Shown here one piece after another: positions 147 to 15,089 of a DNA stretch of 54,143 nt. Source of the stretch: a virus (Duplodnaviria; Caudoviricetes); IMG/VR virus record IMGVR_UViG_3300006750_000012, positions 1-54,143 of that record, one strand, 5' to 3'. The notes under the pieces are model-generated. The model made no database searches. It saw nothing but the letters and a program-made list of their open reading frames with translations, and was not told the origin of the DNA. Within the stretch, counting starts at the first letter, position 1. Each line of letters begins with the position of its first letter. A program made the translations under genes and the position numbers.

Positions 147-360
147 CAGCGCCAGCCAACATAGTATCAAACGGGAAGATTTTCTACGTGTGGACCTGGA
201 CAGTGTCAAGGCGGAAATTTTTCACTTGCGCAGCGCCAGCCACCATAGTATCAAACGGGAAGATTTTCTACGTGTGGAGCGCCAGCCACCATAGTATCAA
301 ACAGGAAATTTTCTACGTGTGGACCTGGACAGTGTCAAGGCGGAAATTTTTCACTTGCGC
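147..360. repeat. Direct-repeat array A-B-A-A-B (A ~46 nt, B ~37 nt), reminiscent of the T5 terminal/injection-stop repeat region
   Basis: A = gcgccagccaccatagtatcaaac(g/a)ggaa..ttttctacgtgtgga at ~148, 232, 279; B = cctggacagtgtcaaggcggaaatttttcacttgcgc at 195, 324. Confidence 0.9.
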
Positions 361-383
361 CGCGGCCCTGGATTTGCTATAAT
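355..383 (+). promoter_or_regulatory. sigma70-type promoter
   Basis: TTGCGC-17-TATAAT with TG extension. Confidence 0.55.
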
Positions 384-433
384 ATTTTTATCAAGTGGGA
401 AGACACTCAGATTTCAAACGAGAAAATTCCCAC

Positions 434-462
434 TTGAAATGAAAGGCTTTTTGCCTTATAAT
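434..462 (+). promoter_or_regulatory. T5-type strong sigma70 promoter
   Basis: TTGAAA-17-TATAAT. Confidence 0.8.
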
Positions 463-511
463 ATATACATAATTTGAGAAATGGCTCAGATTTAACTTTT
501 TTAGCAGGAGA

Positions 512-895
512 ATGGATATGACCGAAAAACGTTATACCGATGAGTTTGTAACGGAACTCCGTACCCGTTACACCGAAGCCGAAGGTTATGAGGCAGAGCA
601 GGCGGTTATCAAAGAGATCGCCAATGAGACGGACTTCACGGTTCCCCAGCTTCGTGCGAAGCTCGTAGCCGAGAAGGTCTACAACGCGAAGCCCACGGTT
701 CCCGCTGGTAAGCGTCGAGTTCGCAAGGCCGAACTGGTAACCCAGCTGGCAACGCTTGTTGGTGAGCCCGAAGAGACGGTCGAAACCTTTGAGAAGGCCA
801 ACGCAAAGGCCCTGGAGATCGTAGTTGGTCGCCTGCGCGCTTGGAAAGCGCGTGCCGAGGCTGCCGAGGCTGTCGAGGCTGTCGAAGCCCAGTAG
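512..895 (+). CDS. T5 A2-like small DNA-binding protein
   Basis: GGAG RBS; pattern LRAKLV..KVY..K / RKAELV / FEKAN..LE resembles T5 A2 as recalled. Confidence 0.65.
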   Translation: MDMTEKRYTDEFVTELRTRYTEAEGYEAEQAVIKEIANETDFTVPQLRAKLVAEKVYNAKPTVPAGKRRVRKAELVTQLATLVGEPEETVETFEKANAKALEIVVGRLRAWKARAEAAEAVEAVEAQ

Positions 896-910
896 ACTGT
901 TCAAGTCGGA

Positions 911-936
911 GGAGCCCCGTTCAGGGGCTTCTTTTT
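911..936 (+). terminator. Rho-independent terminator
   Basis: GGAGCCCC-gttca-GGGGCTTC followed by TTTTT. Confidence 0.8.
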
Positions 937-1026
937 GCGCGTAAAATGCTGCATTGCAGCAAAGCTGCACGCGCCAGTATACCACAGAGCCCTCCCCGCT
1001 GTCAAGTTACAAATTCCAATGGCCAT

Positions 1027-1050
1027 AAAAAAGCCCCAATTAAGGGGCTT
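1027..1050 (-). terminator. Probable terminator for the leftward operon
   Basis: A-tract then AAGCCCC/GGGGCTT hairpin. Confidence 0.6.
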
Positions 1051-1299
1051 AATACCGCGCCTCCGCGCGGGGTTTTTAGGTCAAAAAAGGCAGTATTAGG
1101 CGAATTTAGACGAAAAAAGGCGCTAAAAGGGGTAATTTGGGGCAAAAAGGGGTAATTTGAGTAGTTTTTTACCCCTTTTACCCTGTAAATGGCGCGGAGG
1201 CGCCAAATTGTCGACTTGACAGCCTGGAGCGCCTCGAACTGAATAATTTTGATTCAAATTTAGCTTAGGTAGTCTATTTTTCAGCCCCTATTATTAGTT

Positions 1300-1701
1300 T
1301 CACTGTATTACTCTCATTCTAGTTCTAAGCATTTGAGACTTAATCTCACTAGTCTCTACTAAATCAGTAAGCGCACCTAGTGCTTCTTCTAATGTATTAT
1401 CCTGATCTTGTACTACTTCTCTTAATGTTATAAGTGTTTGTTTGGGAGTTTTATCTAATCCAGGAAGTTCGCAATCGTAGACCTTTTCTATATCAGAAAC
1501 AATCTCACTTTTCTTCTCTGGTACAGTCCCAAACTTAGTACGATACCCAGCCTTCTCATAGATTCCCATATTAGAAAGTTTCGCTATTACGGACTTTGGT
1601 GTACGGTTTAAATCTATACATAGTTGGTTAACTGTATCCATACTAGGATTAGCCTCATACTTTTCTACTATATACTTTTCGTCCCTCTTACTATACGCCA
1701 T
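1300..1701 (-). CDS. A2/D3-like DNA-binding protein paralog
   Basis: SVIAKLSNMGIY..KKSEIV..LDK motif shared with 512..895 and 25033..25401. Confidence 0.6.
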   Translation of the reverse strand: MAYSKRDEKYIVEKYEANPSMDTVNQLCIDLNRTPKSVIAKLSNMGIYEKAGYRTKFGTVPEKKSEIVSDIEKVYDCELPGLDKTPKQTLITLREVVQDQDNTLEEALGALTDLVETSEIKSQMLRTRMRVIQ

Positions 1702-1775
1702 CTTTTTTCCTTATATCTGCTATAGTTGCCTGCATACGCGCGAGAATCGCGCGCAATGGTGGCAATAATTCTATC

Positions 1776-2636
1776 CTATAATCTATTTTCATATTTTTCT
1801 AATCCATCCTTTATTTCATCGTATGCTTTTGGTATAGCATCCCAGTTTTCTGGGTCTAAAATCATTACGTCTATTTCTCTGTTATATAAGTGTGCAAGCC
1901 AACCCTGCAACATCATACATATAATAGGTTTTGGATAATCCTTAAACTCTTGTAATACTACCGGATACCCATTAATATTATAGTTGTATACATCCTTTTT
2001 TGGCACTTTGCGGCTGAAAGCCGCCATTCGCCATTCTCGTAATTCATAAGGACTATCGTAAAACTCATAGTAAGATAAGTCTTGACGTCTAAACTCCGGC
2101 AAGTCCACTAGTGCTTTACCTAGTAGTACTCCCAGCTTTTCATCCTCTAAACTCCAGTCTTCATATTGGATGCCTCGCGCATCCTTGAAAGCATATAGAA
2201 CAAATGGCGTTAACGCGCCAAACCTCCTAAAATCAGGATCTATCTGAGTACCTGCTAGGAGTGTGCTACGAGTAGCCTTAGCGAACATAACTATGATACT
2301 ACGCACGTCCTCCCCAGTCACAGTAACTGTAGTACTATTGTCACCTTCTCCAACTGCGAAGCTTACCTCATCCGGTAAACTATTGGCATCTTCTATTAAT
2401 CTACTAGCAAGATACTTTCCAGTTGAAGCATCCTTAGTTGGATTTAGGGTCTTACTTAGAATGTTCATCATCTTAAGACAGTCCAAATGTGTGAACTTAT
2501 CCTTAGCTTTCAACTTTCCATCTTCCAGTAAGATTTCCCGGCGATTAGTTAGTTCTCCAGCCTCATAAAGCCCGCCTCCGCGGGCAAAGTGGGGCTTGAT
2601 CCTCGGTGCAGATCCTGCTCCAAAGTTTATTTTCAT
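1776..2636 (-). CDS. Conserved T5-like hypothetical protein (286 aa)
   Basis: RFGALTPFVLYAFK..RGIQYEDW and MMLQGW resemble a conserved T5 early hypothetical encoded just inside the terminal repeat (recalled, not searched); AAGGA RBS. Confidence 0.7.
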   Translation of the reverse strand: MKINFGAGSAPRIKPHFARGGGLYEAGELTNRREILLEDGKLKAKDKFTHLDCLKMMNILSKTLNPTKDASTGKYLASRLIEDANSLPDEVSFAVGEGDNSTTVTVTGEDVRSIIVMFAKATRSTLLAGTQIDPDFRRFGALTPFVLYAFKDARGIQYEDWSLEDEKLGVLLGKALVDLPEFRRQDLSYYEFYDSPYELREWRMAAFSRKVPKKDVYNYNINGYPVVLQEFKDYPKPIICMMLQGWLAHLYNREIDVMILDPENWDAIPKAYDEIKDGLEKYENRL

Positions 2637-2857
2637 ATATTTTCCTTGATATTGTTATGAAATAACATTTCCCAGTTACACAGTGTAATTTATTTCTTAG
2701 TATAATTCAAATGCAATTGCCCTTAGAGGGGGAATGTACTGAAAATATACGCGAATTGAAACCGCCACTAGACGAAATTTATACACCTTCCGCAAGCTCC
2801 CGGAAAATTCCTAGTAACGAAATTCGTAATTTTCATACATTCCTTCATGATATAAAT

Positions 2858-2886
2858 ATTATATCACACCTTTAGCATGATGTCAA
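2858..2886 (-). promoter_or_regulatory. sigma70 promoter (leftward)
   Basis: Reverse complement TTGACA-17-TATAAT with A-rich UP element. Confidence 0.85.
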
Positions 2887-2969
2887 TAACTTTTTTTGAG
2901 TGGGTGATATGATCTTGATGTCAAATACGCTATTCGTTTTAGTTACATAAAGGTATGAAAAATTTTTTC

Positions 2970-2998
2970 TTGACAAGTGATGGTAATTTTGATATAAT
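2970..2998 (+). promoter_or_regulatory. sigma70 promoter (rightward, divergent)
   Basis: TTGACA-17-TATAAT. Confidence 0.9.
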
Positions 2999-3008
2999 AT
3001 AGTATGAA

Positions 3009-3275
3009 ATGGAGAACTTTATGAACAATAAACAACTACTTTGGATTTTTACTACTGGCTATTTTAGCGCATGGTTTATTTTTGGTATAAAAGTAGGCGT
3101 GTTCGCTCTAATAGCGCATACGTCTGGTGCATTAGCTTTGCATTACCTAAATATGAATCAGCAAGATAAGATAGAGGAATTGCGCAATGCGTTACATAAC
3201 GCAGTACGTGATGTGGAAGTAAAACAAGGCCAAGACATTTCAGCAGCTCTCGACAAAGACAATAGGTTAAATTAA
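3009..3275 (+). CDS. Hypothetical membrane protein
   Basis: Hydrophobic N-terminal half, follows the promoter. Confidence 0.6.
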   Translation: MENFMNNKQLLWIFTTGYFSAWFIFGIKVGVFALIAHTSGALALHYLNMNQQDKIEELRNALHNAVRDVEVKQGQDISAALDKDNRLN

Positions 3276-3475
3276 TGTTGACTAGAAAGCATTTTTTCAA
3301 CGATCGCGTGCATAGTCTTTTCTTACCTTATCTTTGGAAGTATCGTGTCTGGCGTGATCGTTGGATTATCAATCACCGTATTATTACACCTTGTATAGAT
3401 ATACTTAGGATGATAATGCTTGCCGTTGCTATCGGCTGGTTACTAGCCATGGCAGGTAAAGTTTCGGCTGGTTAA
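3275..3475 (+). CDS. Hypothetical membrane protein
   Basis: TAATG coupling to the upstream gene; C-terminal hydrophobic segment. Confidence 0.5.
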   Translation: MLTRKHFFNDRVHSLFLPYLWKYRVWRDRWIINHRIITPCIDILRMIMLAVAIGWLLAMAGKVSAG

Positions 3476-3570
3476 TACTTGGAGGACTGTAGCTGGACGA
3501 TACATAGTTCTAAAGCAGTGTGGATGAAAGTAGGTTTGGACACTATACGTCCTACAATGAGAGGAATAAT

Positions 3571-3696
3571 ATGGATACAGCGATATATGTCATCGGAGGT
3601 ATAATTGTTGTGGTAGCAATTTTTCTATTCTTAACGGGTAGAGACAACAATCCTATTGATGACTGGTTTAATTGGGAAAATAAGAAGGATAAATAA
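3571..3696 (+). CDS. Small single-TM protein (41 aa, not in ORF track)
   Basis: GAGGA RBS; MDTAIYVIGGIIVVVAIFLFLTG... Confidence 0.6.
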   Translation: MDTAIYVIGGIIVVVAIFLFLTGRDNNPIDDWFNWENKKDK

Positions 3697-3798
3697 TGAG
3701 TAGAATAACAGAAAAACGCTTATGGGTTAACCCCAGTACTAGTGCGGACGTAAATTGGTACGCTGGCCACGGCCAGTATTTATACGAAGGGGAATGAC

Positions 3799-4452
3799 AT
3801 GCGACACATTTGGAGTATAGCAGCAGTAATTGTTTTGGCGGCAGCGGCGGTAATTGCGCAGGCCGAGGTGACTGGCAATATCGGTTGGGATAGTGACTAC
3901 GTTTTCCGTGGCGTACCGCAGAGTGAATCGTCGGCCAGCGGTGGCATCGACTGGGAAGGCGATTCAGGTTTCTACCTGGGTACCTGGGCCGCAGATGTTG
4001 GTGATGGTCTGGAAATCGATTACTACGGTGGCTGGGGGGCCGAAACCGATAGTGGTTTCAGTTATTCCGTCGGCTACACGCTGTATGACTATACCGGCGA
4101 CTTCGATGAGGAATACCAGGAAGTTAATCTGGGTGTCGGCTTTGGTTGGCTCTCGCTGGATATTTCCATAGGTGAATGGGACGGCGACGGGGACGGCGAC
4201 GACTACACCAACTACGAACTAACCGCTGAACGCAATGGCTTCTTCGTAACGCTTGGCAGTTGGGGTGACGACTTTGACGCCGATTACCTCAAGCTGGGTT
4301 ACGCCACCGAGATCGCCGGCATAGATGTGACTAGTTACTACGTGTACAGCAACGCAGCCTTCATTTACGGCAGCGACTCGAACGTGGTCGTTCAGGTCAG
4401 CAAGAGTTTCTCTTTCGAGCAGGTTGCAGATGCTTTTAACGGCACCGAGTAA
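3799..4452 (+). CDS. TorF-family (gcw_chp-like) putative outer-membrane porin
   Basis: Signal peptide; SDYVFRGVPQ, GGIDW, GFYLGTW, EIDYYGGW motifs; visibly GC-richer than its flanks. Confidence 0.8.
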   Translation: MRHIWSIAAVIVLAAAAVIAQAEVTGNIGWDSDYVFRGVPQSESSASGGIDWEGDSGFYLGTWAADVGDGLEIDYYGGWGAETDSGFSYSVGYTLYDYTGDFDEEYQEVNLGVGFGWLSLDISIGEWDGDGDGDDYTNYELTAERNGFFVTLGSWGDDFDADYLKLGYATEIAGIDVTSYYVYSNAAFIYGSDSNVVVQVSKSFSFEQVADAFNGTE

Positions 4453-4484
4453 CGCTTTACGAGCCAGCAAATGGAAAAAATATT

Positions 4485-4934
4485 ATGAAGATATTCCGTT
4501 GGAATAATCCTTATGGTAAATATGCAGTAGTTGCATTTGTAGTTGCATTTGCATTACTATATGTACGTGAGTGTCAGGCCGATGTATGGTTTCAAGCAGG
4601 ATATGGGACTGAAAACAGTTTTAACTTGCTGGAGCCAAAGAACTTGGCTATTGAAGGAGCTTATGTATATAAAGACGATTGGGAAGTGGCTACGGGGTAT
4701 AGTAATATGTGGTATCTTAGTGGTACTCGTGTAGTTAATTACCGATCTTTATTCCTTAACCTAGGATTAGGAGTAAATGAAACTAATGAAAACTTGCCTA
4801 AGTGGTGGAATTTTAGTTTAGGCGCAGGTTTCAATATAAAGAAGTGTAGAGTACAATTCCGACACTTTAGTAATGCAGGAATTGAAAAGCCTAATAGAGG
4901 TGAAAATTGGATACTATGGGGATGTAAAATATGA
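4485..4934 (+). CDS. pagL: PagL-like lipid A 3-O-deacylase (outer-membrane beta-barrel)
   Basis: C-terminal RHFSNAGIEKPNRGEN matches the PagL H-x-S-N-A-G...P-N-x-G catalytic motif; N-terminal signal-like segment. Confidence 0.75.
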   Translation: MKIFRWNNPYGKYAVVAFVVAFALLYVRECQADVWFQAGYGTENSFNLLEPKNLAIEGAYVYKDDWEVATGYSNMWYLSGTRVVNYRSLFLNLGLGVNETNENLPKWWNFSLGAGFNIKKCRVQFRHFSNAGIEKPNRGENWILWGCKI

Positions 4935-5034
4935 TTGATAAATTAAAAGAACAGTGGACTTGGCTAGAAACTGTTCTAAGGTATAATCTATGGAAGACCG
5001 TAGGTGGAAGTAGCGTAGTTGGATTTATTGTTAA

Positions 5035-5328
5035 TTGGTTGATAATATAATGCAGCCCTGGATAATAGCAACAATAATGATGTGGGCAGGTATTATACTA
5101 GTATGCTCTAGCTGGTTTTTACTAAGTGTAACAGCTGGTTTAATTACAGTGGGTACAATATTCGGACTCTTACTCTTAACTTTTGGATTTAAGACCTTAA
5201 ACAGATTAGAATTTGAAGCCCAATTGCAAGAGGCAAATACAGGATACGAAATCGGACCAGAAGATGTTGAAAAATACTCTGATCTAACTCCCGAACAGCG
5301 CGAAAAGTCTGACTTGAATTCTGAATAA
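5035..5328 (+). CDS. Hypothetical 2-TM protein
   Basis: Two hydrophobic helices. Confidence 0.55.
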   Translation: MVDNIMQPWIIATIMMWAGIILVCSSWFLLSVTAGLITVGTIFGLLLLTFGFKTLNRLEFEAQLQEANTGYEIGPEDVEKYSDLTPEQREKSDLNSE

Positions 5329-5342
5329 AAATTTCCTATAAT
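5314..5342 (+). promoter_or_regulatory. sigma70 promoter
   Basis: TTGAAT-17-TATAAT. Confidence 0.8.
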
Positions 5343-5387
5343 ATATATACTGATTGAGAAGATTTAAATTCAAATATTGAGGTATAT

Positions 5388-5759
5388 ATGAAAGACCAGA
5401 ATGAAATCAAGCGCCTTCGCGCTGTCATTAGTGCAGCTCTAGCTAAAGAAGGTTATGAGTGCGAATTAGGTAATTGGACGTACACCGATAATCAGGCGTG
5501 GTTCAAAGTGAACATTCTCAGTGCCGGACAGGAAGCTAAAGAGATTGAAAACTGGAACCGATACTGTTTTAAGTTCGGTTTGCGACCTGAAGACTTTGGT
5601 GCTCGCTTTATGTACGACATGGAAGAGTATCAAGTTACTGGAATTCGACCACGAGCACGTAAGTATCCTATCGCTTGTGTACGTCTGAGCGACAGCCACA
5701 CTGATACTGTTTTCCCTGCTAGCACGTTTCGTGCTGGTCGCATGAAGGAGACAGTATAG
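5388..5759 (+). CDS. Hypothetical phage protein
   Basis: GAGGT RBS, 123 aa. Confidence 0.75.
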   Translation: MKDQNEIKRLRAVISAALAKEGYECELGNWTYTDNQAWFKVNILSAGQEAKEIENWNRYCFKFGLRPEDFGARFMYDMEEYQVTGIRPRARKYPIACVRLSDSHTDTVFPASTFRAGRMKETV

Positions 5760-5824
5760 TCCTGAACCTAAAAGAAACTCGAACCCTTCGCGCATTAATT
5801 GCCTGGCTCCGCCAGCAATCAACA

Positions 5825-6358
5825 ATGCTCGGCTACCTGCTGGCAATCCTAATTACATATTTTGGCTGGATAGGCCGCACTGAGCGAAATATTACAGCAG
5901 AAGAAGGGCTGGGTTATATTTTGGGAATTGTGGGCGCCTCACTTATGGCAGCGCTCTTACTATACCCATTACGAAAGCGTGTCCGCTTCCTGCGCTTTCT
6001 TGGTACAACCAAGCGCTGGTTTTTCTGGCACATGGTATTGGGCATCATTGGCCCGATACTAATTCTGTTTCACAGTAATTTTGCCCTGGGCTCCCTGAAC
6101 TCACGTATCTCTCTATATTGCATGTTATTGGTTTCTGGCAGCGGCCTGATTGGACGATATCTTTACTCACATATACATAACGGATTGTATGGTCGCAAGA
6201 CAACTTTACGTTCGCTAACCAAAAAGGAGCAACGTAATATCGCCAATCTGTACCTGTTTGAACGACTCTTTTCTTTCTGGCACATATTGCATTTACCATT
6301 CTTCTTAATGTTTTGTATTTCTACCATCGTTCACATCTTAGCGGTTCATATGTACTGA
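5825..6358 (+). CDS. Ferric-reductase-like transmembrane (heme b) domain protein
   Basis: LLYPLRKR, WFFWHMVLGIIGP.LILFHS, SGLIGRYLY, WHILHLP, VHILAVH: His-bearing TM helices. Confidence 0.65.
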   Translation: MLGYLLAILITYFGWIGRTERNITAEEGLGYILGIVGASLMAALLLYPLRKRVRFLRFLGTTKRWFFWHMVLGIIGPILILFHSNFALGSLNSRISLYCMLLVSGSGLIGRYLYSHIHNGLYGRKTTLRSLTKKEQRNIANLYLFERLFSFWHILHLPFFLMFCISTIVHILAVHMY

Positions 6359-6418
6359 CCTGAAAGTGTTGCAGCTCGAACATAAGGCGAATATGCAGAT
6401 AGAATAAAAAAATCTGAC

Positions 6419-6447
6419 TTGATTCCCGAGTCAAAGTGTGAGATAAT
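6419..6447 (+). promoter_or_regulatory. sigma70 promoter upstream of ncRNA island
   Basis: TTGATT-17-GATAAT with TG extension. Confidence 0.7.
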
Positions 6448-6478
6448 ATATATAATGGGAAAACAACTCTGAATTAGA

Positions 6479-6967
6479 ATTTTCTCGCGTTCCAGCGAGA
6501 AAATCCATGGTCCCCTCGACAGGCGACCCTAAACTAAAAAGTCCGGGTGCTCTACCACTCGTTACAAGGTAGAGGTAGGTAACTCACTGCGCTAGTTGCC
6601 CCTGGGGCTACAGGGATAAGGTAGTCTAAGGTACGGGGTCCTTACAAAACCCCACTCTTTAATAAAGGCTTGATTAACGAAAGTAAAGTAAGAAGAATAT
6701 CATGTCAAGCCTTTATTAAAGAGTGCAGCGGGAAACCGCCGGGTAAGTTAGAAGTCCCGCAAGGAAAGCGTTTTACTTGCACGCATAAAGATCTAATAAA
6801 GTAAATTGGGAAAGGCGAGTAACGGCCTAGTAGGTCAAACGAAAACGCAATAGCAAAAGTAGTATTGATGGAAAAATAATTACACGGTGAGGGGCCACCT
6901 TAGGTAGGTGCGGTATATCAGCTTCGGCGATCATACCATTAGCCACTAGAAGAAGCCCCATTCTTTA
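6479..6967 (+). ncRNA. Putative large structured non-coding RNA (unclassified)
   Basis: No ORF; 10-bp hairpin 6479-6504, perfect 21-bp inverted repeat 6653-6673/6705-6725, GNRA and cUUCGg tetraloop hairpins. Confidence 0.55.
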
Positions 6968-6995
6968 TTTTACAGTAATAAACAGGAAACTTTTT

Positions 6996-7190
6996 ATGCG
7001 AGCGCACGAACAAATGATGCAAGAGGTAATACAATACCTTGATGCAAAAGTAGAAACTCGAGCATATGCAAAAATGTTAACTAGTGCGTATACTAACTAC
7101 GAGCAAGAACTTAGTAATATGCAGCGCGAACTCAATGATGCAGAAAATGCACTCACGATTTTTGAAAACGCGATTTTTGAAAACGAATGA
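6996..7190 (+). CDS. Hypothetical coiled-coil protein
   Basis: AGGA RBS; 64 aa, helical character. Confidence 0.55.
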   Translation: MRAHEQMMQEVIQYLDAKVETRAYAKMLTSAYTNYEQELSNMQRELNDAENALTIFENAIFENE

Positions 7191-7441
7191 TTAGAGTAAT
7201 CAAATTAGAACGCGGTACGTTAGATACGTGGCTAGACTACAGTGTGACCACGTATGATAACTTTACGCAAGCACGTGACGATGCACGTTTTGCGGGATAT
7301 TGCTTAAATGCTCCAGTTCATATGCTTGAGGAAGACATTCTAATAGATGCTACATATATTTCGACATTTGCTCCCAAAAAGGTTGAGTCTTGGCGAAATA
7401 GTACAGCCCAAGGAGATTGGGACGACAAGAACCGAAAATAG
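7187..7441 (+). CDS. Hypothetical protein
   Basis: ATGA overlap with the upstream gene. Confidence 0.55.
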   Translation: MIRVIKLERGTLDTWLDYSVTTYDNFTQARDDARFAGYCLNAPVHMLEEDILIDATYISTFAPKKVESWRNSTAQGDWDDKNRK

Positions 7442-7460
7442 TGAAACAGGGTACCTAATT

Positions 7461-8010
7461 CCTACTGAGGCGTTTGACATCATCCGGCCCAAATAAATAT
7501 CAATTAAATAGGGAGACGATAGTCGCTAAACGTCTATAAATAAAAGAGATACTGTACTGGGCCAGTATATGTCCACCTGAGGCGTGAGATAAAGCCCGAG
7601 TATATATCAGGTAGTCTATGGCAATCGACATAAAAACTTTGCTACCAGAGAATTGATAGTAGGTCCTGGTATATTGAAGTGAACTATCATTAAATCCAAG
7701 TATACAGCTGAAATAATAGACTAAGGTACTTGGTTAGTGGCGCTGCCTAGCGCAGAAAACAAGTAAGGTGTCTGTCCGAGACATTAAATCGAGATGTGAT
7801 AAGGTCCCACTCTAAAAGACCTGTACGTCGACAACGTCCTGAGCATGACAAAAAGCTGCTTAAGTCTTGTGAATCATACGCATCCAAGCCAGTGCTTCTG
7901 GAAGTAACCGGAGGAAATACACACTGAGGTTCTCCTGGTCTGTCCTTAAAAGATCAGGACTATTATACAAGCTAGTTGCTCTCAGAAGGTTCTGACGATC
8001 AGTGGCAAGA
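7461..8010 (+). ncRNA. Putative ncRNA island: tandem H-type pseudoknots and hairpins
   Basis: At least six S1-S2-S1'-A-rich-S2' units; no ORF. Confidence 0.55.
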
Positions 8011-9207
8011 CGAAAGGAACAGGTGATGAATAAAAATATTCTGGGGATTCATGGGAATTTGCTGCGCTCTGATGTGCGTTATGGTTCTGATGAACTCGTG
8101 AAAGCATGGGATCGTAATGGGTTTCATTATCTCCGCTTGCCAGGTGGTAGTTCAAATCATTGGTATCAGTGGAAAACAGGAATATTCCACGAAAACAACT
8201 GGAGTTTTGTTGGGGATACGTCTGAGAAAGATCGGTACATGATTTTTGGGGCTAACAAGGCTCGTGAAACGCACGGGGCATATCTTGTTAATGACATGAT
8301 TGATTTTCTGATTGAAACAGGGACTGAGTATTCTTATGTTGTAAACGCCGCAGAGCCTTTTCAGAATCATCGTGATTTTCTGAAGCACTGGAAAGCCAGT
8401 GGTTTAGACTTGAAGAACGTTGAGTATGGGAATGAGATGTACACACCGCAGAAATATGCGGAATTTGAAAATGTGCAGATGTATACTGACAAAGCTAAGA
8501 ATTTTAACTATGTGCTTAAACAAGATTTTCCTGATGCTAAGTTGGGACTTACTGTGTCGATGGAGGCTTTCAAACCTCATAAGCCGGGAGCTAAACGGGA
8601 CGAATTATTACACTGGGATGAAGGTATCCGCAATCAAGAGTGGCGCGATGCGAACATTATTCACTTTTATGCGACTCCCGCTGTCAATTCAGCGTGGGGG
8701 AAATGGTCAGCAAATGAAGTATCCTATTACACTGCGCTGAATCATTGGAATAAGTATTTTGAAGAAGCAGTTAGCACATGGGATGACAAACCAATATGGG
8801 TAACTGAGTGGGGAGTCTATCCGTGGCCGCGAACACAGGGAGAACCAGAACTCTACTCATACTTGAGTTCCAAGTATAATCATTTGTTTGTTGCTCATGC
8901 GCTTATCGAAATGATGCTGGAACCGCGCATCACGCTAGCTGCCTATCATTCATGGACACAGCTACTGGAAGGTAGCGGTATAAACGCAGAGTTGGCAGAA
9001 CCTGGTTGTAACGCAACAAAGGAAGTGTTCAAAGTATTTGGTGAACTTACCAACGAGACACCGGAAAGAGTTGGTATACGAGGACACGGCTGTACGGGAG
9101 TTAAGCTCGGAAACACTTTGATTCTGGTCAACAGGATGGATCAAAAAAATATTGTCGAGGGCTGCGAAGTTCCCGCTCATTCAGTTATTGTCCGAAAATA
9201 TGTGTAG
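8002..9207 (+). CDS. Clan GH-A TIM-barrel glycoside hydrolase (GH51/GH44/GH79-like); likely start 8026
   Basis: LRLPGGS..WYQW, VEYGNE (acid/base), IWVTEWG (nucleophile). Confidence 0.75.
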   Translation: MARRKEQVMNKNILGIHGNLLRSDVRYGSDELVKAWDRNGFHYLRLPGGSSNHWYQWKTGIFHENNWSFVGDTSEKDRYMIFGANKARETHGAYLVNDMIDFLIETGTEYSYVVNAAEPFQNHRDFLKHWKASGLDLKNVEYGNEMYTPQKYAEFENVQMYTDKAKNFNYVLKQDFPDAKLGLTVSMEAFKPHKPGAKRDELLHWDEGIRNQEWRDANIIHFYATPAVNSAWGKWSANEVSYYTALNHWNKYFEEAVSTWDDKPIWVTEWGVYPWPRTQGEPELYSYLSSKYNHLFVAHALIEMMLEPRITLAAYHSWTQLLEGSGINAELAEPGCNATKEVFKVFGELTNETPERVGIRGHGCTGVKLGNTLILVNRMDQKNIVEGCEVPAHSVIVRKYV

Positions 9208-9226
9208 TAACATGGGGGTTGGAAAA

Positions 9227-9712
9227 ATGACATGGGAATTAATCAAAATAAAAATACTGTTGTTATTGCTGTTGCCGTTGTGTGTAGTGGCTCAAGCACC
9301 GGTCTACGATACAGATGGCGATGGAATAGTTGATCGTAACGACCCGTGTGTTTTCGTCGCAAATGAGCGTTGCGCCGATTTCAATGGTAACGGGTTTGTG
9401 AATTTCGCAGATCTTGCTTATATGAAATCGGTGTTTTCTACCGATGATGGTGTTGCGGATTTGAATGATGATGGGGTGGTGAACTTTGGCGATCTTAGTT
9501 TATTGAAAATGCAAATGTTCCAATTCGCGCTGTCTTGCAACACTTACGCGACTGCGCATATCGGGCATCGCGACGTATGGCAAATTGCTTGTCATGGGGC
9601 AATCGAACAAAGCGTGTATTTCGGGCATTCGGAGTGTAGTGTTGAAACGCATCGAATCAACGGTGATACATATTTGCATTGCATGGTTACGTTCGGGTCT
9701 GGGGACTGGTAG
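9227..9712 (+). CDS. Secreted protein with TSP3 repeat and dockerin-type Ca-binding repeats
   Basis: Signal peptide; DTDGDGIVDRNDPC; ADFNGNGFVNFADL / ADLNDDGVVNFGDL. Confidence 0.7.
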   Translation: MTWELIKIKILLLLLLPLCVVAQAPVYDTDGDGIVDRNDPCVFVANERCADFNGNGFVNFADLAYMKSVFSTDDGVADLNDDGVVNFGDLSLLKMQMFQFALSCNTYATAHIGHRDVWQIACHGAIEQSVYFGHSECSVETHRINGDTYLHCMVTFGSGDW

Positions 9713-9896
9713 TAAAAGTTGCCCACAGGGTACCAAACATAGTAATAAACAGGAAATTTTTTTAAATGGGACTAGAATTATTTAACATAGTAATAGGTTC
9801 GCTATTAGTAGCCGGGGCCCTAACATGCTTTGCAAGACTTGTGGCGAGCCACGGAAAGGATAAACGTAAACGTAAACGCGTTTAAGCAAAGTATGA

Positions 9897-9971
9897 GGGG
9901 ACGTAGTTAAGAGGTTTAACATCTGGCTTTTAACCAGTCGACGGCGGGTTCAATTCCCCCCGCCCCTACCA
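9897..9971 (+). tRNA. tRNA-Lys(UUU), a few stem mismatches
   Basis: Cloverleaf, loop CT-TTT-AA, TTCAATT, encoded CCA. Confidence 0.75.
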
Positions 9972-9996
9972 CTTTATAGCATACGAAAAATTTTTC

Positions 9997-10025
9997 TTGA
10001 CAAGTATGGTCATTTTTGATATAAT
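9997..10025 (+). promoter_or_regulatory. sigma70 promoter upstream of tmRNA
   Basis: TTGACA-17-TATAAT. Confidence 0.9.
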
Positions 10026-10139
10026 ATATAAAATGGGAAAAAACCTACAATGATTGAATTACAAAAATGGCTTAAGGAAACCGATGCAGAATATGATAAA
10101 TTCTGTGAAAATTCCTTACCGATTGGATGAAGCAATAAC

Positions 10140-10378
10140 GCCTTGTGCGGACGCGGATAGCATTATTCCGCCTTCTCCACCAAATAAATATCTAAGAATT
10201 AATCGAGAAATACGCAGTCCAAATTAAAGGGGAAGAACAGATTCGACGGATAAGTAACGGGTTGTGGACAATCACGTACGAAAGTACAAAACATTAAACG
10301 CAAATGATGAAACATTCGCACTTGCTGCCTAAGGGTTAGCTGAGCTTGGCGGCTCGCTTGTAAACAGAAGTAGCCGCC
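10140..10378 (+). ncRNA. ssrA: Two-piece circularly permuted tmRNA, tag (A)ANDETFALAA*
   Basis: Acceptor piece ends CTTCTCC-A-CCA (10182). Coding piece starts GGGGAAG...GATTCGAC (10229) and gives a G3.U70 pair. Tag ORF 10300-10332. 5' boundary approximate. Confidence 0.9.
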
Positions 10379-10379
10379 T

Positions 10380-10533
10380 CCATTAAACAAATGTTTCAAT
10401 GTCTCAGGCTACCGGATTAGGGTTGACCACCCTCCTGCTTAGTCAAAGTATAGATTTAGTCACCTATATTGGGAGCGCACCGTGTAAAACTTGACGGAAA
10501 GGCGAACCTAGCTCTGGAACATTTCTTTAATGG
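10380..10533 (+). ncRNA. Putative structured RNA closed by an ~18-bp stem
   Basis: 10380-10398 pairs with 10515-10533; three internal hairpins. Confidence 0.45.
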
Positions 10534-10623
10534 ATGTATAGTTTCTTATTTAATCTATAAAAATAAGTGTCAAGTTCTATGTGCTAAAGTAAAGATAATA
10601 GGAATTACACAAAGGAGCATGAA

Positions 10624-10788
10624 ATGACTGATAGTAGATGGTCGCGTCTGGAACTTCAGCGGGAGCGGGAGTCTAGGTGTGGTGGGCGTCGCAGCTTGCA
10701 AGATTGCGGTCATTGGGAGTGTCTGTGTGGTACTCTGAATGAAGAAGATCGGAGAACTTGTCAGCATTGTGGTGAGTCTGGCGACTAA
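10624..10788 (+). CDS. 54-aa zinc-finger microprotein (RanBP2-like; not in ORF track)
   Basis: AAGGAG RBS; WECLCGTLNEEDRRTCQHCG. Confidence 0.65.
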   Translation: MTDSRWSRLELQRERESRCGGRRSLQDCGHWECLCGTLNEEDRRTCQHCGESGD

Positions 10789-10819
10789 TAGAATTTGAAA
10801 GGAGTAGGGTGCCAAATAT

Positions 10820-10904
10820 GGATAGGCTGGGCATTGGCGAGCCCACGTGGCTGTAAACCACACGCCTTAGAGCTGTAATGGTTCAACTCCATTCCTATCC
10901 ACCA
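10820..10904 (+). tRNA. tRNA-Tyr(GUA)
   Basis: GGATAGG/CCTATCC acceptor, CT-GTA-AA loop, long variable arm, CCA. Confidence 0.85.
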
Positions 10905-10909
10905 ATTTA

Positions 10910-10982
10910 ACAGTAGGCGTAATGGCGCACTAAGCGGACTCCAAACCCGTTATGCTGGGCTCGATACCTAGGTAGGGTGCCA
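10910..10982 (+). pseudogene. Degenerate tRNA-Trp(CCA)-like element
   Basis: CT-CCA-AA loop, T-arm and CCA present; acceptor strands do not pair. Confidence 0.55.
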
Positions 10983-11009
10983 ATTTACAGTAGTAAACAG
11001 GAAATTATT

Positions 11010-11198
11010 TTGATTAGTGTAAGAGAAAGACTACCTAAACCCAATCAACCATGTAAAGTATATGTTCTGGATTATTTAAAAAAGAACTTTGAAGGAAAGA
11101 AGTTTAAGTTTATAACATATAGTGATGGTGGATATTTTTGGGATGATAGTGAAACTTGTTTACAAGACTCAGAAGTAACACATTGGAATCCTTTTTAA
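11010..11198 (+). CDS. DUF551-like phage protein
   Basis: ISVRERLP...VTHWNP; TTG start after AGGA. Confidence 0.6.
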   Translation: MISVRERLPKPNQPCKVYVLDYLKKNFEGKKFKFITYSDGGYFWDDSETCLQDSEVTHWNPF

Positions 11199-11209
11199 GA
11201 AGATAATAA

Positions 11210-11860
11210 GTGTTAAACGTATTAAACCTATATGCAGGAGTTGGTGGCAACCGCAAACTCTGGACCGACGTAGACGTCACAGCAATAGAAAGCGATCCAA
11301 AGATAGCAAGTGTTTATCAGAAACTTTTTCCAGATGACACTGTATTTATTGAAGATGCGCATCAGTTCTTATTAGAAACTCATGATCTGGTAGACTTCGT
11401 TTGGTCAAGTCCCCCGTGCCAATCGCACTCTCGTATGATGAAGGCTACTAGACATGATCTAAGACGTTATCCTGATATGGCACTATACGAAGAGATATTA
11501 TTTCTTCAGAACTTTTTCAAAGGCGGATGGGTAGTAGAAAACGTAAAACCCTATTACGAACCTTTGATAAAACCTACAGCAATTATAGGTAGACATTATT
11601 TCTGGAGTAACTTCCCAATTACAGCAGACGATGTTAAGCGACCTCCTGGATTTATTAATAAGTCTACAGTAGCAGGTAAACTAGAATTGATGGATTGGCT
11701 TGATATTCATTACGAAGAGAAGTTATATTACAAGGGGAACCATTGTCCAGCCCAAGTGCTGCGCAACTGCGTTCATCCCTTAATAGGAAAACAGATTTTA
11801 GAGAATTATAGGGTTGGGATGCTGTGTGGCGCAGGTTCTCGCTGTGACCGAGTTAACTGA
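11210..11860 (+). CDS. DNA cytosine-5 methyltransferase (short phage type)
   Basis: Motif I LNLYAGVGG, motif IV SPPCQ, motif VI ENV. Confidence 0.85.
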   Translation: MLNVLNLYAGVGGNRKLWTDVDVTAIESDPKIASVYQKLFPDDTVFIEDAHQFLLETHDLVDFVWSSPPCQSHSRMMKATRHDLRRYPDMALYEEILFLQNFFKGGWVVENVKPYYEPLIKPTAIIGRHYFWSNFPITADDVKRPPGFINKSTVAGKLELMDWLDIHYEEKLYYKGNHCPAQVLRNCVHPLIGKQILENYRVGMLCGAGSRCDRVN

Positions 11861-11887
11861 TGGGTTCGAATCCCTCCCTCCCCACCA
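11811..11887 (+). tRNA. tRNA-His(GUG)-like, degenerate acceptor; overlaps the MTase 3' end
   Basis: CT-GTG-AC loop, GGTTCGAATCC, CCA; two acceptor mismatches. Confidence 0.5.
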
Positions 11888-11902
11888 AATTAGAGGTACA
11901 CT

Positions 11903-12073
11903 ATGAGTGTAGAAGATAATACTCAACAAGCTAAGCGATTTATTAAGATTGTTGGCCCAATTACATTAATTGCTGTTATAGTCTTTTTAGTCGTAGCAGC
12001 AGGCAGAGAATATGCTGGTTGCGAATGGCCTTGGGAAAATGTAGATGGTACTGATACGTACCTCGTGGACTAA
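11903..12073 (+). CDS. Small single-TM protein (56 aa, not in track)
   Basis: GAGGT RBS; IVGPITLIAVIVFLVVAAG. Confidence 0.65.
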   Translation: MSVEDNTQQAKRFIKIVGPITLIAVIVFLVVAAGREYAGCEWPWENVDGTDTYLVD

Positions 12074-12157
12074 CGCGATATAATTGATTAGTAGGTCGTG
12101 ACCTAAACCCTGATACCCGAGGGTCTGAATGGCAATATCGGGTTACTAAATTCTGAC

Positions 12158-12186
12158 TTGAAATAGTGAGTAGAACTTGCTATAAT
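12158..12186 (+). promoter_or_regulatory. sigma70 promoter
   Basis: TTGAAA-17-TATAAT. Confidence 0.85.
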
Positions 12187-12206
12187 ATATAAAATGGAAA
12201 ATCAAA

Positions 12207-12282
12207 CAGAGCATAGCTGAGCTTGGTATAGCATGGCGTTTGGGGCGCTAAGACGAGGGTTCGAATCCTTCTGTTCTGACCA
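12207..12282 (+). tRNA. tRNA-Pro(UGG)
   Basis: CAGAGCA/TGTTCTG acceptor, TT-TGG-GG loop, TTCGAAT, CCA. Confidence 0.9.
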
Positions 12283-12336
12283 ATTAAGGAGGTAACGACA
12301 TAATGAGTAAATTGTAATTAAATACAGGAGAAAATT

Positions 12337-12606
12337 ATGAGCGATACTTATCGACATAAAGTATTGGGCAAGTATAAAAGAATCCGTGATGAGGACTTTT
12401 GTGCAGGTTGGGAGTATTTAAGCACCAACCACCCGGGCTTTATGTATACCTGGTGGAATTCTACACCTTCGTGGTGGAATAATGAATTTCATACCAGACC
12501 AGCGAGAACGCAGACTCGCAATACTCTGCGCAAGATCAATCTAGATAACTATGAGGATGACTGGGATTTTCCCAACTATAAAAAGCCTCATATTTATTAC
12601 TGGTAA
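12337..12606 (+). CDS. Hypothetical phage protein (Trp-rich)
   Basis: AGGAG RBS; TPSWWN..HTRP.R ... KKPHIYYW. Confidence 0.7.
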   Translation: MSDTYRHKVLGKYKRIRDEDFCAGWEYLSTNHPGFMYTWWNSTPSWWNNEFHTRPARTQTRNTLRKINLDNYEDDWDFPNYKKPHIYYW

Positions 12607-12714
12607 GACTATAGCAGGTAGTTTCCCTGTGCTAAGCAAACCGTAAGCATTTGAGAGCGTGAACAATGTGATCCTACAGTGGGACGATCTTTAAACTCAA
12701 CCACACAATTTTAT

Positions 12715-12786
12715 ATCCCGAGCGACAGGACGCAGGTGAGGCTACGAACCACGCCCTTGTAGGTTCGATTCCCTAGGACTCCGCCA
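12715..12786 (+). pseudogene. Degenerate or chimeric tRNA-Arg(ACG)-like element
   Basis: CT-ACG-AA loop, GGTTCGATT, CCA; 3' acceptor strand does not match the 5' strand. Confidence 0.5.
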
Positions 12787-12791
12787 AATAT

Positions 12792-12868
12792 GGATCGGTC
12801 GTCTAATGGTTCAGGACGCGTTGGCTTTCAACCTCCGAATCAGGGTTCGAACCCCTGTCGATTCACCA
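12792..12868 (+). tRNA. tRNA-Glu(UUC), weak anticodon stem
   Basis: GGATCGG/TCGATTC acceptor, CT-TTC-AA loop, perfect T-arm, CCA. Confidence 0.65.
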
Positions 12869-12953
12869 AATATAGGTAACAGTGAATGATGGGTCGCACC
12901 TATCGTACTGGGGTCAGTTGAAGCGGGATGAGACCTCCCCGCCTTTTATTTAA

Positions 12954-13030
12954 TGTGGTGAAGCTTAAGTGGCATAAGCAACTGGCTGATAACCGGTAGA
13001 CAGGTGGTTCAAGTCCACTCACCACGACCA
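12954..13030 (+). tRNA. tRNA-Ile(GAU)
   Basis: Full cloverleaf, CT-GAT-AA loop, CCA. Confidence 0.9.
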
Positions 13031-13036
13031 AACAAT

Positions 13037-13112
13037 GCTAGTGTGCGCATCGGGGTATGCGAACCGCCTGTCTAGCGGATGTAGGAGGGTTCGAGTCCCT
13101 TCACTAGCGCCA
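13037..13112 (+). tRNA. tRNA-Asp(GUC)
   Basis: GCTAGTG/CACTAGC acceptor, CT-GTC-TA loop, G73, CCA. Confidence 0.85.
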
Positions 13113-13129
13113 AATTTAAAAGGATACTT

Positions 13130-13723
13130 ATGAAAGTAGATATGTCCGTTCCTTTTGATAGATCATTTAATAGAAATTTTGATTTATCTGAGAGAACCAT
13201 ATTACAAGCTACAATGTCAGAAACAGCTTCTATATTTGAAAATATACCTTATAGCTGGGATAATGCTGATCAAGGTACAGGATTTGGAGATATTGGGGGA
13301 GATATATGGTCTTGCTGGTCATTCCTAAATGTAACAATACCTCAAGATGTAACAATAACAAAGGCCACAATGGTTTGGAAGCCTAGCACAGATCCTGACA
13401 CAATTAGTGCTGATCTTCTCTTTGATTGTGAAAAAGATGCTACTCCGGTAGATGTCACAAATACTACTCCTCTTAATAGACCCTACCAGGATTCTTTTGT
13501 GTGGACAACCGCTAACGATACTATTACAGGACTGACATTAACAGGAGATGAGGAATATACTTATAATATAGTAATAGATCCAGCGATTTTTCAAGAATGT
13601 ATAGATTTAGGCGGTTGGAATAGAAAATTTAACCTGAGAGGTAGAGCTCCAGATACCCCTTCTAATACGTGGGTAGGACAGAGAGATATTGCATCTTTGA
13701 TTGTGGAGTATTACGAAAATTAA
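13130..13723 (+). CDS. Acidic beta-rich protein (DNRLRE-like IPx..I.KA.L motif)
   Basis: FLNVTIPQDVTITKATM resembles FDPISTIPQGTTIKQAWL in 44811..46841. Confidence 0.55.
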   Translation: MKVDMSVPFDRSFNRNFDLSERTILQATMSETASIFENIPYSWDNADQGTGFGDIGGDIWSCWSFLNVTIPQDVTITKATMVWKPSTDPDTISADLLFDCEKDATPVDVTNTTPLNRPYQDSFVWTTANDTITGLTLTGDEEYTYNIVIDPAIFQECIDLGGWNRKFNLRGRAPDTPSNTWVGQRDIASLIVEYYEN

Positions 13724-13724
13724 A

Positions 13725-13768
13725 GCCCCATTGGTGGAATTGGCAGACACGCTGGGTTTAGTTCCCAG
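13725..13768 (+). pseudogene. 5' half of tRNA-Leu(UAG), lacking T-arm and 3' strand
   Basis: GCCCCAT-TGGTGGAATTGGCAGACAC-G-CTGGG-TTTAGTT-CCCAG, then unrelated sequence. Confidence 0.7.
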
Positions 13769-13790
13769 TTCCCAGCCCCCGTAGAACGGA

Positions 13791-13866
13791 GCAGTGATGG
13801 TGTTCAATGGTAGCATTACAGTCTTCCAAACTGACGGTATGGGTTCGAGTCCCATTCACTGTTCCA
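13791..13866 (+). tRNA. tRNA-Gly(UCC)
   Basis: GCAGTGA/TCACTGT acceptor, CT-TCC-AA loop, U73, CCA. Confidence 0.9.
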
Positions 13867-14017
13867 AATAAAGGGCAAGTGTGGCGGTGGTCGAAAGTAT
13901 GTAGTTGCTAACTGACAATCAGTAGTAGAAGACTGCATATGAATACAGGTGGTAGTCTATTGGGACTAATGACTTTAAACTTGCAGTCCCACTTTGTAAA
14001 TAACATGAGGACATTAT

Positions 14018-14545
14018 ATGTCTTTTAAATATTTAGTAGCTGCCAGTTTGCTAGCACTTAGTATGAGTGCTAATGCGGATATTTATATTGGTGGTGAAGT
14101 AAATAGTACGGCAGTTGACTCTAATTCTCTAGAAGATATTGTCAACGACTTCTCTGATCGTTCAGCTGGATATGGTGCAATTATTGGATATAAGTTTCCA
14201 ATGCCATTCGCAGTTCAGGCCAAGTACATAGCTCCCGAAGAGCTTGATGATCAAGGCCTTTCAATTGATGCAGATGGGTGGTTAGTAAGTGGACTAGGAT
14301 TCATTCCTTTAGGGAATGCTTGGTCTATTTACGGAGAAGCAGGATACTTTGATTTCTCTGGAGATATTGAGATTGGTAGTGAAGAAGCTTCACAGTCTTT
14401 ATCTGGAGAGAGTGGAGTATTGTTCGGAGCAGGTGTTAACTGGAACATCACCGGAGGACTAAACACTCGACTTGGCGCTACTCTATACGATGTAGAAGGT
14501 GCCAGTGTTAATCAGTTCAACCTAGGCGTACTGTACGAGTTTTAA
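14018..14545 (+). CDS. OmpA-like 8-stranded outer-membrane beta-barrel
   Basis: Signal peptide AXA; amphipathic strands; C-terminal LGVLYEF beta-signal. Confidence 0.8.
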   Translation: MSFKYLVAASLLALSMSANADIYIGGEVNSTAVDSNSLEDIVNDFSDRSAGYGAIIGYKFPMPFAVQAKYIAPEELDDQGLSIDADGWLVSGLGFIPLGNAWSIYGEAGYFDFSGDIEIGSEEASQSLSGESGVLFGAGVNWNITGGLNTRLGATLYDVEGASVNQFNLGVLYEF

Positions 14546-14610
14546 ATATCGGACCGCTCCTTCCGACGGGACGTGCAAATATCGGAAGACCAATCTTATA
14601 AGAGGATAAT

Positions 14611-14910
14611 ATGGCTAGATTAGTCACGGATGGAGTCGCACAAGCTGCGGTAAAATTAAGCAATGTACTTAGTAGTAGACACGAAGGCGGAGGATATAAC
14701 GTATGGACTATCCAAGCCATAGCAGATGATGTACCTTCTGGTGCAACATTTCAGCTAGAGGCTAGTACTAATAATAATGATTTTGACCCAGTCCCAGATG
14801 TAACATTAACTTCTGGACAACAGATCGCTAGTTTTACTATGTCTAGTAGATGCTGGGTACAACTTACTGGGCTTGAAACTGCTTTTACAGGCGACGTTAA
14901 TATAGTATAA
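14611..14910 (+). CDS. Hypothetical beta-rich protein
   Basis: GAGGA RBS. Confidence 0.65.
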   Translation: MARLVTDGVAQAAVKLSNVLSSRHEGGGYNVWTIQAIADDVPSGATFQLEASTNNNDFDPVPDVTLTSGQQIASFTMSSRCWVQLTGLETAFTGDVNIV

Positions 14911-15089
14911 TGTCAAACAAAGAAACAAGATTGAAAAGATGGGATCAAATTCAACGTGATCAAAAACGTAAAAGACGATCCAAAAATTTTAACCATAAAC
15001 AGAAAACTAAGCAAGAAAAGGCTTATAAACGAGAACGAATTAGTCTTAAAGACAAAGTAGAAGAGGCCCTTAAAAACTTAAAACTATAG
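14910..15089 (+). CDS. Small basic protein (59 aa, not in track)
   Basis: TAATG coupling; K/R-rich. Confidence 0.5.
   Translation: MSNKETRLKRWDQIQRDQKRKRRSKNFNHKQKTKQEKAYKRERISLKDKVEEALKNLKL

Follow-up and report, generated by a model that had tools for sequence, protein, structure and literature searches.

To our knowledge, the large non-coding RNAs that phages encode beside tRNA genes (RNAX of phage T5 and its companions, GOLLD and ROOL) are abundant, and none of them has a known function. In the pseudoknots of the preQ1-I riboswitch and of the T-even gene 32 leader, the A-rich third loop (L3) forms triplexes. In its tRNA region, the genome record of phage T5 (NC_005859) lists eight RNAs, stable or tRNA-like, "with unknown functions", and the DT57C record carries the same stable-RNA annotation. 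The largest of the T5 RNAs, RNAX (rnaX, T5s08; NC_005859 40848-41566), is 719 nt long and is located between a promoter and tRNA-Arg. The RNAX stretch can be aligned in 525 phage records, only partly so in Klebsiella phages. GOLLD and ROOL are described, in the available text of a preprint, as phage-encoded RNAs of several hundred nucleotides that are often found near tRNA islands, are abundant and have no explained function (bioRxiv 10.1101/2024.12.08.627333).

The stretch of DNA analysed here, referred to as the window, is the whole of record IMGVR_UViG_3300006750_000012 (54,143 bases), for which completeness is estimated at 48%. Its replication module comprises a DnaB-like helicase, a primase, a DNA polymerase I, an NAD-ligase, an SbcCD-like nuclease, a thymidylate synthase and a ribonucleotide reductase, and the DNA polymerase shares 42% identity with its counterparts in T5-like phages. 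Judged by the replication module and the DNA polymerase, the contig is a divergent marine T5-like phage; given this level of polymerase identity, its kinship to the T5-like phages is distant. The first 15 kb contain small genes, host-like envelope genes, eight tRNA genes and a permuted tmRNA, all on the plus strand from 3.8 kb onward. The subject of this study is a gene-free gap in this early region:

7442-8026 (585 nt): gene-free gap between an ORF at 7187-7441 (plus strand) and an ORF at 8026-9207 (plus strand)

The tRNA genes, all eight on the plus strand, begin with tRNA-Lys at 9897 and continue with seven others up to 13866. Together with the permuted tmRNA they are located 2-6 kb downstream of the gap on the same strand, the first tRNA gene being 1.9 kb away. 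The two-piece (circularly permuted) tmRNA was identified at 10121-10332 with the Rfam model tmRNA_permuted (75.5 bits), within a wider weak match at 10091-10406; the beta-proteobacterial tmRNA type also matched, below threshold, and ARAGORN made no call of a permuted tmRNA at 10121-10332. This gene is located directly behind tRNA-Lys(UUU) (9897-9971) and a perfect consensus promoter (9997-10025). According to the available text of an earlier report, a phage-encoded two-piece tmRNA has already been published for a marine methylophage (PMC9004378).

Six copies of one strong promoter of approximately 45 nt, with 24 invariant columns, are present on the contig outside the gap:

2970-2998, plus strand: strong promoter copy
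2886-2858, minus strand: strong promoter copy
9997-10025, plus strand: strong promoter copy, in front of the tmRNA
16577-16605, plus strand: strong promoter copy
27362-27390, plus strand: strong promoter copy
35518-35546, plus strand: strong promoter copy

Each copy has an A-tract followed by TTGACA, then 17 nt with TG as the last two letters, and TATAAT (GATAAT in the copy at 27362); the copies look like T5-type early promoters.

Several other features of the early region were recorded. Host-like envelope or secreted proteins are encoded at 3799-4452 (Gcw_chp), 4485-4934 (PagL-like lipid A deacylase), 14018-14545 (OmpA-like beta-barrel) and 9152-9712 (a signal-peptide protein with dockerin/EF-hand calcium-binding repeats). 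An ORF of 216 aa at 11210-11860 matches C-5 cytosine DNA methyltransferases over its N-terminal third only, and it may be truncated because its end overlaps tRNA-His (11811-11887). At the left end of the contig, positions 144-364 hold non-coding direct repeats with units of 51 nt and 57 nt, 98% identical and spaced by 84-129 nt, which may be an end or terminal-repeat feature. The first kilobase of the contig has an unusually high G+C content (0.52), and promoter-like sites there face outward.

The gap is non-coding in all six frames. It contains no ORF longer than 50 aa and several stops in each of the six frames. When these frames were read through with X in search of a decayed gene, no Pfam or PHROG family was matched at E <= 0.01, the best read-through matches being 0.065 and 0.13. 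Rfam gave no match in the gap at the gathering score, nor at E <= 10 or 5 in scans of 7200-8300 and 1-15000; the three matches reported by cmscan for 7200-8300 at E <= 10 are all at chance level. No tRNA or tRNA-like element was detected in 7200-8300. Elsewhere in the window there is no paralogue of the gap (every match has E >= 1.1), and complementarity between the gap and the rest of the window, which could point to antisense targets, is at chance level. RNase P-like words had been glimpsed in the gene-free gaps and were not borne out by the Rfam scans of 7200-8300, 1-15000 and 6330-7010. The ORF directly downstream (8026-9207) encodes an orphan protein of 393 aa that belongs to no Pfam, PHROG, NCBIfam or PADLOC family; among 5.8 billion protein clusters it matches only itself, and its PDB match covers 27 residues and is chance-like.

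We searched public sequencing runs with positions 6300-9300 as the query, and 24 runs were listed, five of them RNA. All five RNA runs among the 24 listed share 0.10-0.17 of the 3-kb query, which is about the size of the gap stretch. Contigs were aligned to 5300-10500 for three RNA runs, from three studies, and for one DNA run (X2); the shares of the unaligned runs (X13 and X20, RNA; X3-X8, X10, X14-X19 and X21-X24, DNA) are not read here as evidence of habitat or expression. Each of the three RNA runs yielded a contig in the gap, and the union of the three delimits a probable stable RNA:

7454-7880 (427 nt): contig from RNA run X9, 0 mismatches
7461-7935 (475 nt): contig from RNA run X12, 0 mismatches
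7483-7961 (479 nt): contig from RNA run X11, 0 mismatches
7454-7961, plus strand (inferred): union of the three RNA contigs, probable stable RNA

All three contigs are wholly inside the gap and align over their full length with no loose ends, and RNA and DNA contigs are identical over the region. The DNA continues past the ends of the RNA contigs, both in the window itself and in a DNA piece from X2 (7996-8211); the 18 contigs of X2 cover 27 of the 30 bins of 5300-10500. For a discrete RNA with ends in the gap, the contrast between these RNA contigs and the continuing DNA counts as a weak hint. From assembled contigs neither the strand nor the level nor the true ends of an RNA can be read, and DNA may be present in an RNA library. 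Across the three runs the left ends differ by up to 29 nt and the right ends by up to 81 nt, a scatter that fits fading coverage better than a shared assembly branch point. In the rest of 5300-10500, X11 and X12 cover nothing and X9 covers only 6226-6360 and 6747-6940; these gaps in coverage are not taken to mean that the flanking genes, tRNA-Lys or the tmRNA are silent. The preliminary description had placed the region at the level of RNA rather than protein, and this part of it stands, as the region has no usable frame and appears as stand-alone contigs in three RNA libraries.

The two other matches from X9 are of interest in their own right. The first, a contig of 194 nt at 6747-6940, is located inside a second gene-free gap of 640 nt (6358-6996), which has no Rfam match at E <= 10. 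This second gap contains a perfect 21-bp inverted repeat (6653-6673 / 6705-6725) with a local fold z of -5.9 on the plus strand and -7.8 on the minus strand, and it may hold another RNA. The other is a contig of 164 nt, of which 135 nt match 6226-6360 with one difference, flanked by unlike sequence on both sides. This suggests that a mosaic relative of the phage is present in that sample.

For positions 7461-8010, the preliminary description had proposed a tandem array of six compact H-type pseudoknots that share an architecture and an A-rich L3. All six strings are present where they had been placed, and their stems (S1 and S2) can form as drawn, models 1 and 3 each including a single G-U pair:

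7461-7535, plus strand: proposed pseudoknot 1, stems of 4 and 7 bp, long loops, 33 nt between S2 and S1'
7574-7596, plus strand: proposed pseudoknot 2, stems of 3 and 3 bp, hairpins alone -0.5 and -2.7 kcal/mol
7614-7644, plus strand: proposed pseudoknot 3, stems of 3 and 6 bp, one of the pairs G-U
7769-7791, plus strand: proposed pseudoknot 4, stems of 4 and 3 bp
7796-7822, plus strand: proposed pseudoknot 5, stems of 3 and 5 bp
7836-7860, plus strand: proposed pseudoknot 6, stems of 3 and 4 bp

The term compact does not apply to model 1, in which L2 is 33 nt long. All models except model 1 rely on a stem of 3 bp, and the hairpins of models 2-6, taken singly, have energies of +0.1 to -4.2 kcal/mol each. 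In the predicted ensemble, S2 of model 1 (7468-7474/7529-7535) closes a long imperfect hairpin and model 2 is absent at P >= 0.6. Model 3 gives way in the ensemble to two nested helices, 7610-7615/7641-7646 and 7617-7620/7629-7632. S1 of model 4 falls within a 7-bp hairpin (7767-7773/7779-7785, P >= 0.69), and S2 of model 6 falls inside a 6-bp hairpin (7840-7845/7857-7862, P >= 0.83). The S2 hairpin of model 5 is predicted with P >= 0.85, and its S1 competes with a nested helix (7793-7797/7825-7829) predicted with the same P >= 0.85. For models 3, 5 and partly 4, the predicted ensemble thus favours nested helices that use the same bases.

To count such elements, a descriptor was built post hoc from the ranges of the proposed models (S1 of 3-6 bp, L1 of 1-4 nt, S2 of 3-7 bp, L2 of 0-2 nt, L3 of 5-9 nt with at least half A, and at most one G-U pair). 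On the plus strand of 7461-8010 it has seven non-overlapping matches, which are five of the six proposed models and two others. Dinucleotide shuffles gave 3.67 +/- 1.59 matches, with 4% of 300 shuffles reaching seven, and a second shuffle run gave 3.86 +/- 1.73, with 7.5% of 200 reaching seven. Plus-strand windows of 550 nt from the contig, mostly coding, have a mean of 4.52 +/- 2.02 matches; 16.8% of them reach seven and the maximum, in coding DNA, is 11. Two strict variants of the descriptor exceed the shuffles with p <= 0.005: with a stem sum of at least 8 there are four matches vs 0.73 in shuffles, and with no G-U pair there are five vs 1.19. This excess is modest and confined to the plus strand, and 6.2% and 6.7% of contig windows, respectively, reach the same counts. 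Without the A-rich L3 rule the excess is gone (12 matches vs 10.07 in shuffles, with 60% of contig windows reaching 12). The minus strand shows no pseudoknot enrichment in any variant of the descriptor.

As the descriptor was tuned on the same sequence, these density figures do not establish an array, and base composition accounts for the A-rich loops, the region being 33% A and the plus strand being A-rich along most of the contig. Pseudoknot density in 7461-8010 is not convincingly above chance. The proposal of a tandem H-type array is therefore not upheld: the shuffle check gives p values of 0.04-0.075, but densities of this order fall within what the rest of the contig shows, and 3-bp stems underlie most of the models. 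A tandem pseudoknot architecture is unneeded to explain the sequence and is unsupported by the statistics. Architectural repeats made of 3-bp stems and A-rich loops arise about this densely in ordinary A-rich phage sequence, which is a caution for first-pass calls of this kind.

The word CTGAG does occur four times in the region (7465, 7577, 7839 and 7924), as had been noted. Four copies are reached in 0.7% of 1000 shuffles for that particular word; the most frequent 5-mer of a shuffle typically has 4-6 copies, with a mean maximum of 4.75. Three of the nine CTGAGG words on the plus strand of the window are located in the region. The word CTGAGGCGT has two copies here and is absent from the rest of the window on both strands. 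Both belong to a pair of 14-nt repeats, 112 nt apart, that is the sole internal sequence repeat:

7460-7473, plus strand: 14-nt repeat, copy 1 (repeat family D19), contains CTGAGGCGT
7572-7585, plus strand: 14-nt repeat, copy 2, 86% identical to copy 1, with CTGAGGCGT exact

TRF and a repeat finder report as tandem or other repeats only this pair and a 21-nt low-complexity run at 7490-7510.

We compared minimum free energies (MFE) of folding with those of shuffled sequences. For the whole 585-nt gap, the MFE z was -1.00 on the plus strand (13 of 100 shuffles fold as well) and -0.79 on the minus strand (17 of 100), and for 508 nt it was -1.28 (11 of 100) and -1.13 (14 of 100), respectively. For 7446-7965 the plus strand gave z -2.37, with none of 30 shuffles as low, and the minus strand -1.80. 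The mean base-pair distance of 7446-7965 was 76 on the plus strand vs 122 +/- 27 in shuffles (0 of 30), and 109 vs 137 on the minus strand. T5 RNAX, used as a control, gave an MFE z of -3.28 on its plus strand (0 of 20 shuffles). In local windows of 120 nt, z ranged from -1.64 to +1.27 on the plus strand, and one minus-strand window had z -3.3. By these models, the folding of the gap relative to shuffles is borderline, as it varies with the bounds chosen and the minus strand folds about as well.

The predicted plus-strand fold of 7446-7965 is a chain of approximately 12 short hairpins, the clearest of which are:

7696-7733, plus strand: best-defined internal hairpin, 8 bp (7696-7703/7726-7733), P >= 0.95
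7890-7926, plus strand: two-part hairpin, 12 bp (7890-7901 / 7908-7926), P >= 0.96
7933-7959, plus strand: right-end hairpin, 9 bp (7933-7941 / 7951-7959), P >= 0.81

The last of these ends 2 nt before 7961, the right end of the X11 contig. It is not a classical terminator because it has no U-run. No strong promoter or intrinsic terminator bounding the RNA was detected on either strand, and the sequence nearest to the phage promoter type at the gap is a 7-of-12 match at 7411-7439. We favour the plus strand for the RNA: all neighbouring genes are on this strand, the A>T and G>C skew is as in plus-strand genes, and for 7446-7965 the plus-strand fold departs further from shuffles than the minus-strand one. 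If the RNA is on the plus strand, it is probably cut from a longer early transcript.

Relatives of the locus were sought in collections that may omit records very near the window. In these, no relative was found by blastn of GenBank phages, by tblastn with the neighbouring 393-aa protein, in IMG/VR with both flanking proteins as queries, or in a metagenome search with the 393-aa protein. An exact 28-mer is absent from the viral, metagenome and genome contigs. Eleven DNA-polymerase loci in IMG/VR are at most 31% identical to that of the window, and the five longest records of these loci have no match to the gap. Because no homologue was found in the collections searched, neither conservation nor covariation backs a function. 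At the level of abstracts, the literature on T5 stable RNAs and marine phage sRNAs holds nothing bearing on an RNA from this gap.

We hold with moderate confidence that the gap encodes an orphan, stable phage RNA of approximately 0.5 kb, like the T5 stable RNAs in kind. The main rival reading, which we consider rather unlikely, is a non-functional transcribed spacer: the stretch would then belong either to the small-gene operon upstream, as its long 3' tail, or to the 393-aa gene, as its leader, and would enter assemblies because it is somewhat more nuclease-resistant or by accidents of low coverage. In favour of a spacer, the gap has no promoter or terminator of its own, a folding energy near that of shuffles and no evidence of conservation, and contig depth cannot rank genes. 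A spacer sits less well with the fact that runs from three studies assembled the same stretch of approximately 430-480 nt, with ends inside the gap and at least 65 nt before the downstream start codon, and with the stable non-coding RNAs annotated in the same part of the genome in T5-like phages. The DNA itself might be the functional element, for replication, nicking or an injection stop as in the T5 terminal repeat, and be transcribed by chance. T5 is annotated with a 1-kb non-coding injection stop signal and the gap has several inverted repeats, but it lacks direct repeats like those at the left end of the contig, its place is among early genes and not at a terminal repeat, and the separate contigs in three RNA libraries point to an RNA product. 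We regard this as highly improbable.

Two further readings accept an RNA and differ in what it does. In one of them, the transcript would be an mRNA that encodes a very small protein or several, such as the product of a 43-aa ORF with a GTG start at 7796-7927 (plus strand). Twelve ORFs of 20-57 aa overlap the region, which is present in RNA libraries; on the plus strand, however, those wholly inside it are only non-ATG or very short ATG ORFs, none of the ORFs matches Pfam, PHROGs or PADLOC, and the RNA-covered stretch is approximately four times longer than any of them. We consider an mRNA hardly probable. The array of five or six tandem compact H-type pseudoknots, for which the proposed roles were those of a multivalent sponge or decoy, a barrier to exonucleases or a set of ligand-binding units, we judge to be improbable. 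The strings are real, the strict descriptors exceed shuffles on the plus strand, a third of the plus-strand CTGAGG words are found here and the region is in RNA libraries. Against this, a descriptor fitted to this very region is equalled by many windows of the same contig and loses its excess without the A-rich rule, five of six models need a 3-bp stem and have hairpins of little stability, nested helices compete with S1 or S2 in three models, and no Rfam pseudoknot family matches.

The stable-RNA reading can be set out as follows. The gap would encode a discrete non-coding RNA, covering at least 7454-7961, that accumulates in infected cells. This RNA would most likely be made from the plus strand, within early transcription that takes in the adjacent small genes as well as the tRNA and tmRNA genes, and the longer early transcript would be trimmed to a nuclease-resistant form whose right end falls just behind the hairpin at 7933-7959. 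It would be the positional counterpart of the stable RNAs of the T5 tRNA region and a member of no described family. As to its role, we can only guess that the RNA acts in trans, with its approximately 12 short hairpins parted by A-rich single-stranded segments, and that, while the phage takes over the cell, this chain of hairpins might bind and sequester an RNA-binding factor of the host or some component of the translation apparatus.

A bolder version of the stable-RNA reading is possible, and we put it forward tentatively. The locus would found a new family of large (approximately 0.5 kb) structured phage RNAs that a widespread marine T5-like phage produces in large amounts, that are unrelated in sequence to GOLLD, ROOL and T5 RNAX and occupy the same niche beside tRNA/tmRNA islands. 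Some of its modules of hairpin and A-rich loop, possibly including small pseudoknots, would be repeated binding sites for a host factor. An example that is unrelated in sequence, from an uncultured marine T5-like phage with its own two-piece tmRNA, would widen the class, and its appearance in three independent environmental RNA data sets would provide a natural setting where expression of the class can be seen.

Among the known systems, the preQ1-I riboswitch and the T-even gene 32 leader resemble models 2-6, as drawn, in topology and in the A-rich third loop. They differ in that the gap has no covariance-model match, its models have 3-bp stems and their density is within the contig background; unlike riboswitches or translational operators, the gap models are also not positioned before a gene start. 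With type III toxin-antitoxin systems of the ToxI-like kind, the locus shares a non-coding RNA in a phage-related context, the repeated pseudoknot units having been the idea of the preliminary description. That analogy does not hold up: the gap has no tandem repeats, in particular no ToxI-like tandem direct repeat of a unit of approximately 30-40 nt, and no Rfam match, and there is no ToxN/AbiQ-type endoribonuclease or other toxin or defence gene among the neighbours at 5388-9712 (PADLOC 0 of 7 proteins; no relevant Pfam, PHROG or NCBIfam family). The gap RNA is like GOLLD and ROOL in being phage-borne and close to a tRNA island, here the co-oriented cluster of eight tRNA genes from tRNA-Lys (9897) to 13866, and it differs from them in that their Rfam models are unmatched by the gap, even at E <= 10. 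An elaborate conserved secondary structure and homo-oligomeric cages further mark GOLLD and ROOL; for the gap, single-sequence folding is borderline.

In genome type, place and kind, the closest analogue of the gap RNA is T5 RNAX, and the RNA contigs hint at stability as well. By annotation, RNAX is a large stable non-coding RNA of the early/tRNA region of T5, read in the direction of the adjacent early genes; the phage of the window is T5-like in its replication genes and likewise has its tRNA island on the strand of its early genes. The two differ in that RNAX has an internal tRNA-like element and abuts tRNA-Arg, whereas the gap RNA is without a tRNA-like part, and in that RNAX folds well below shuffles (z -3.28), whereas the gap RNA is borderline. 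In sequence, the best E value in blastn and nhmmer comparisons of RNAX with the window was 0.39, with no match falling in the gap, and a profile of RNAX from six phages had no match in the window at E <= 100 (positive control T5, 1.9e-128). What is new here, and of moderate value, is an orphan sequence family in a known but unexplained class of RNA, together with evidence of its expression in the environment.
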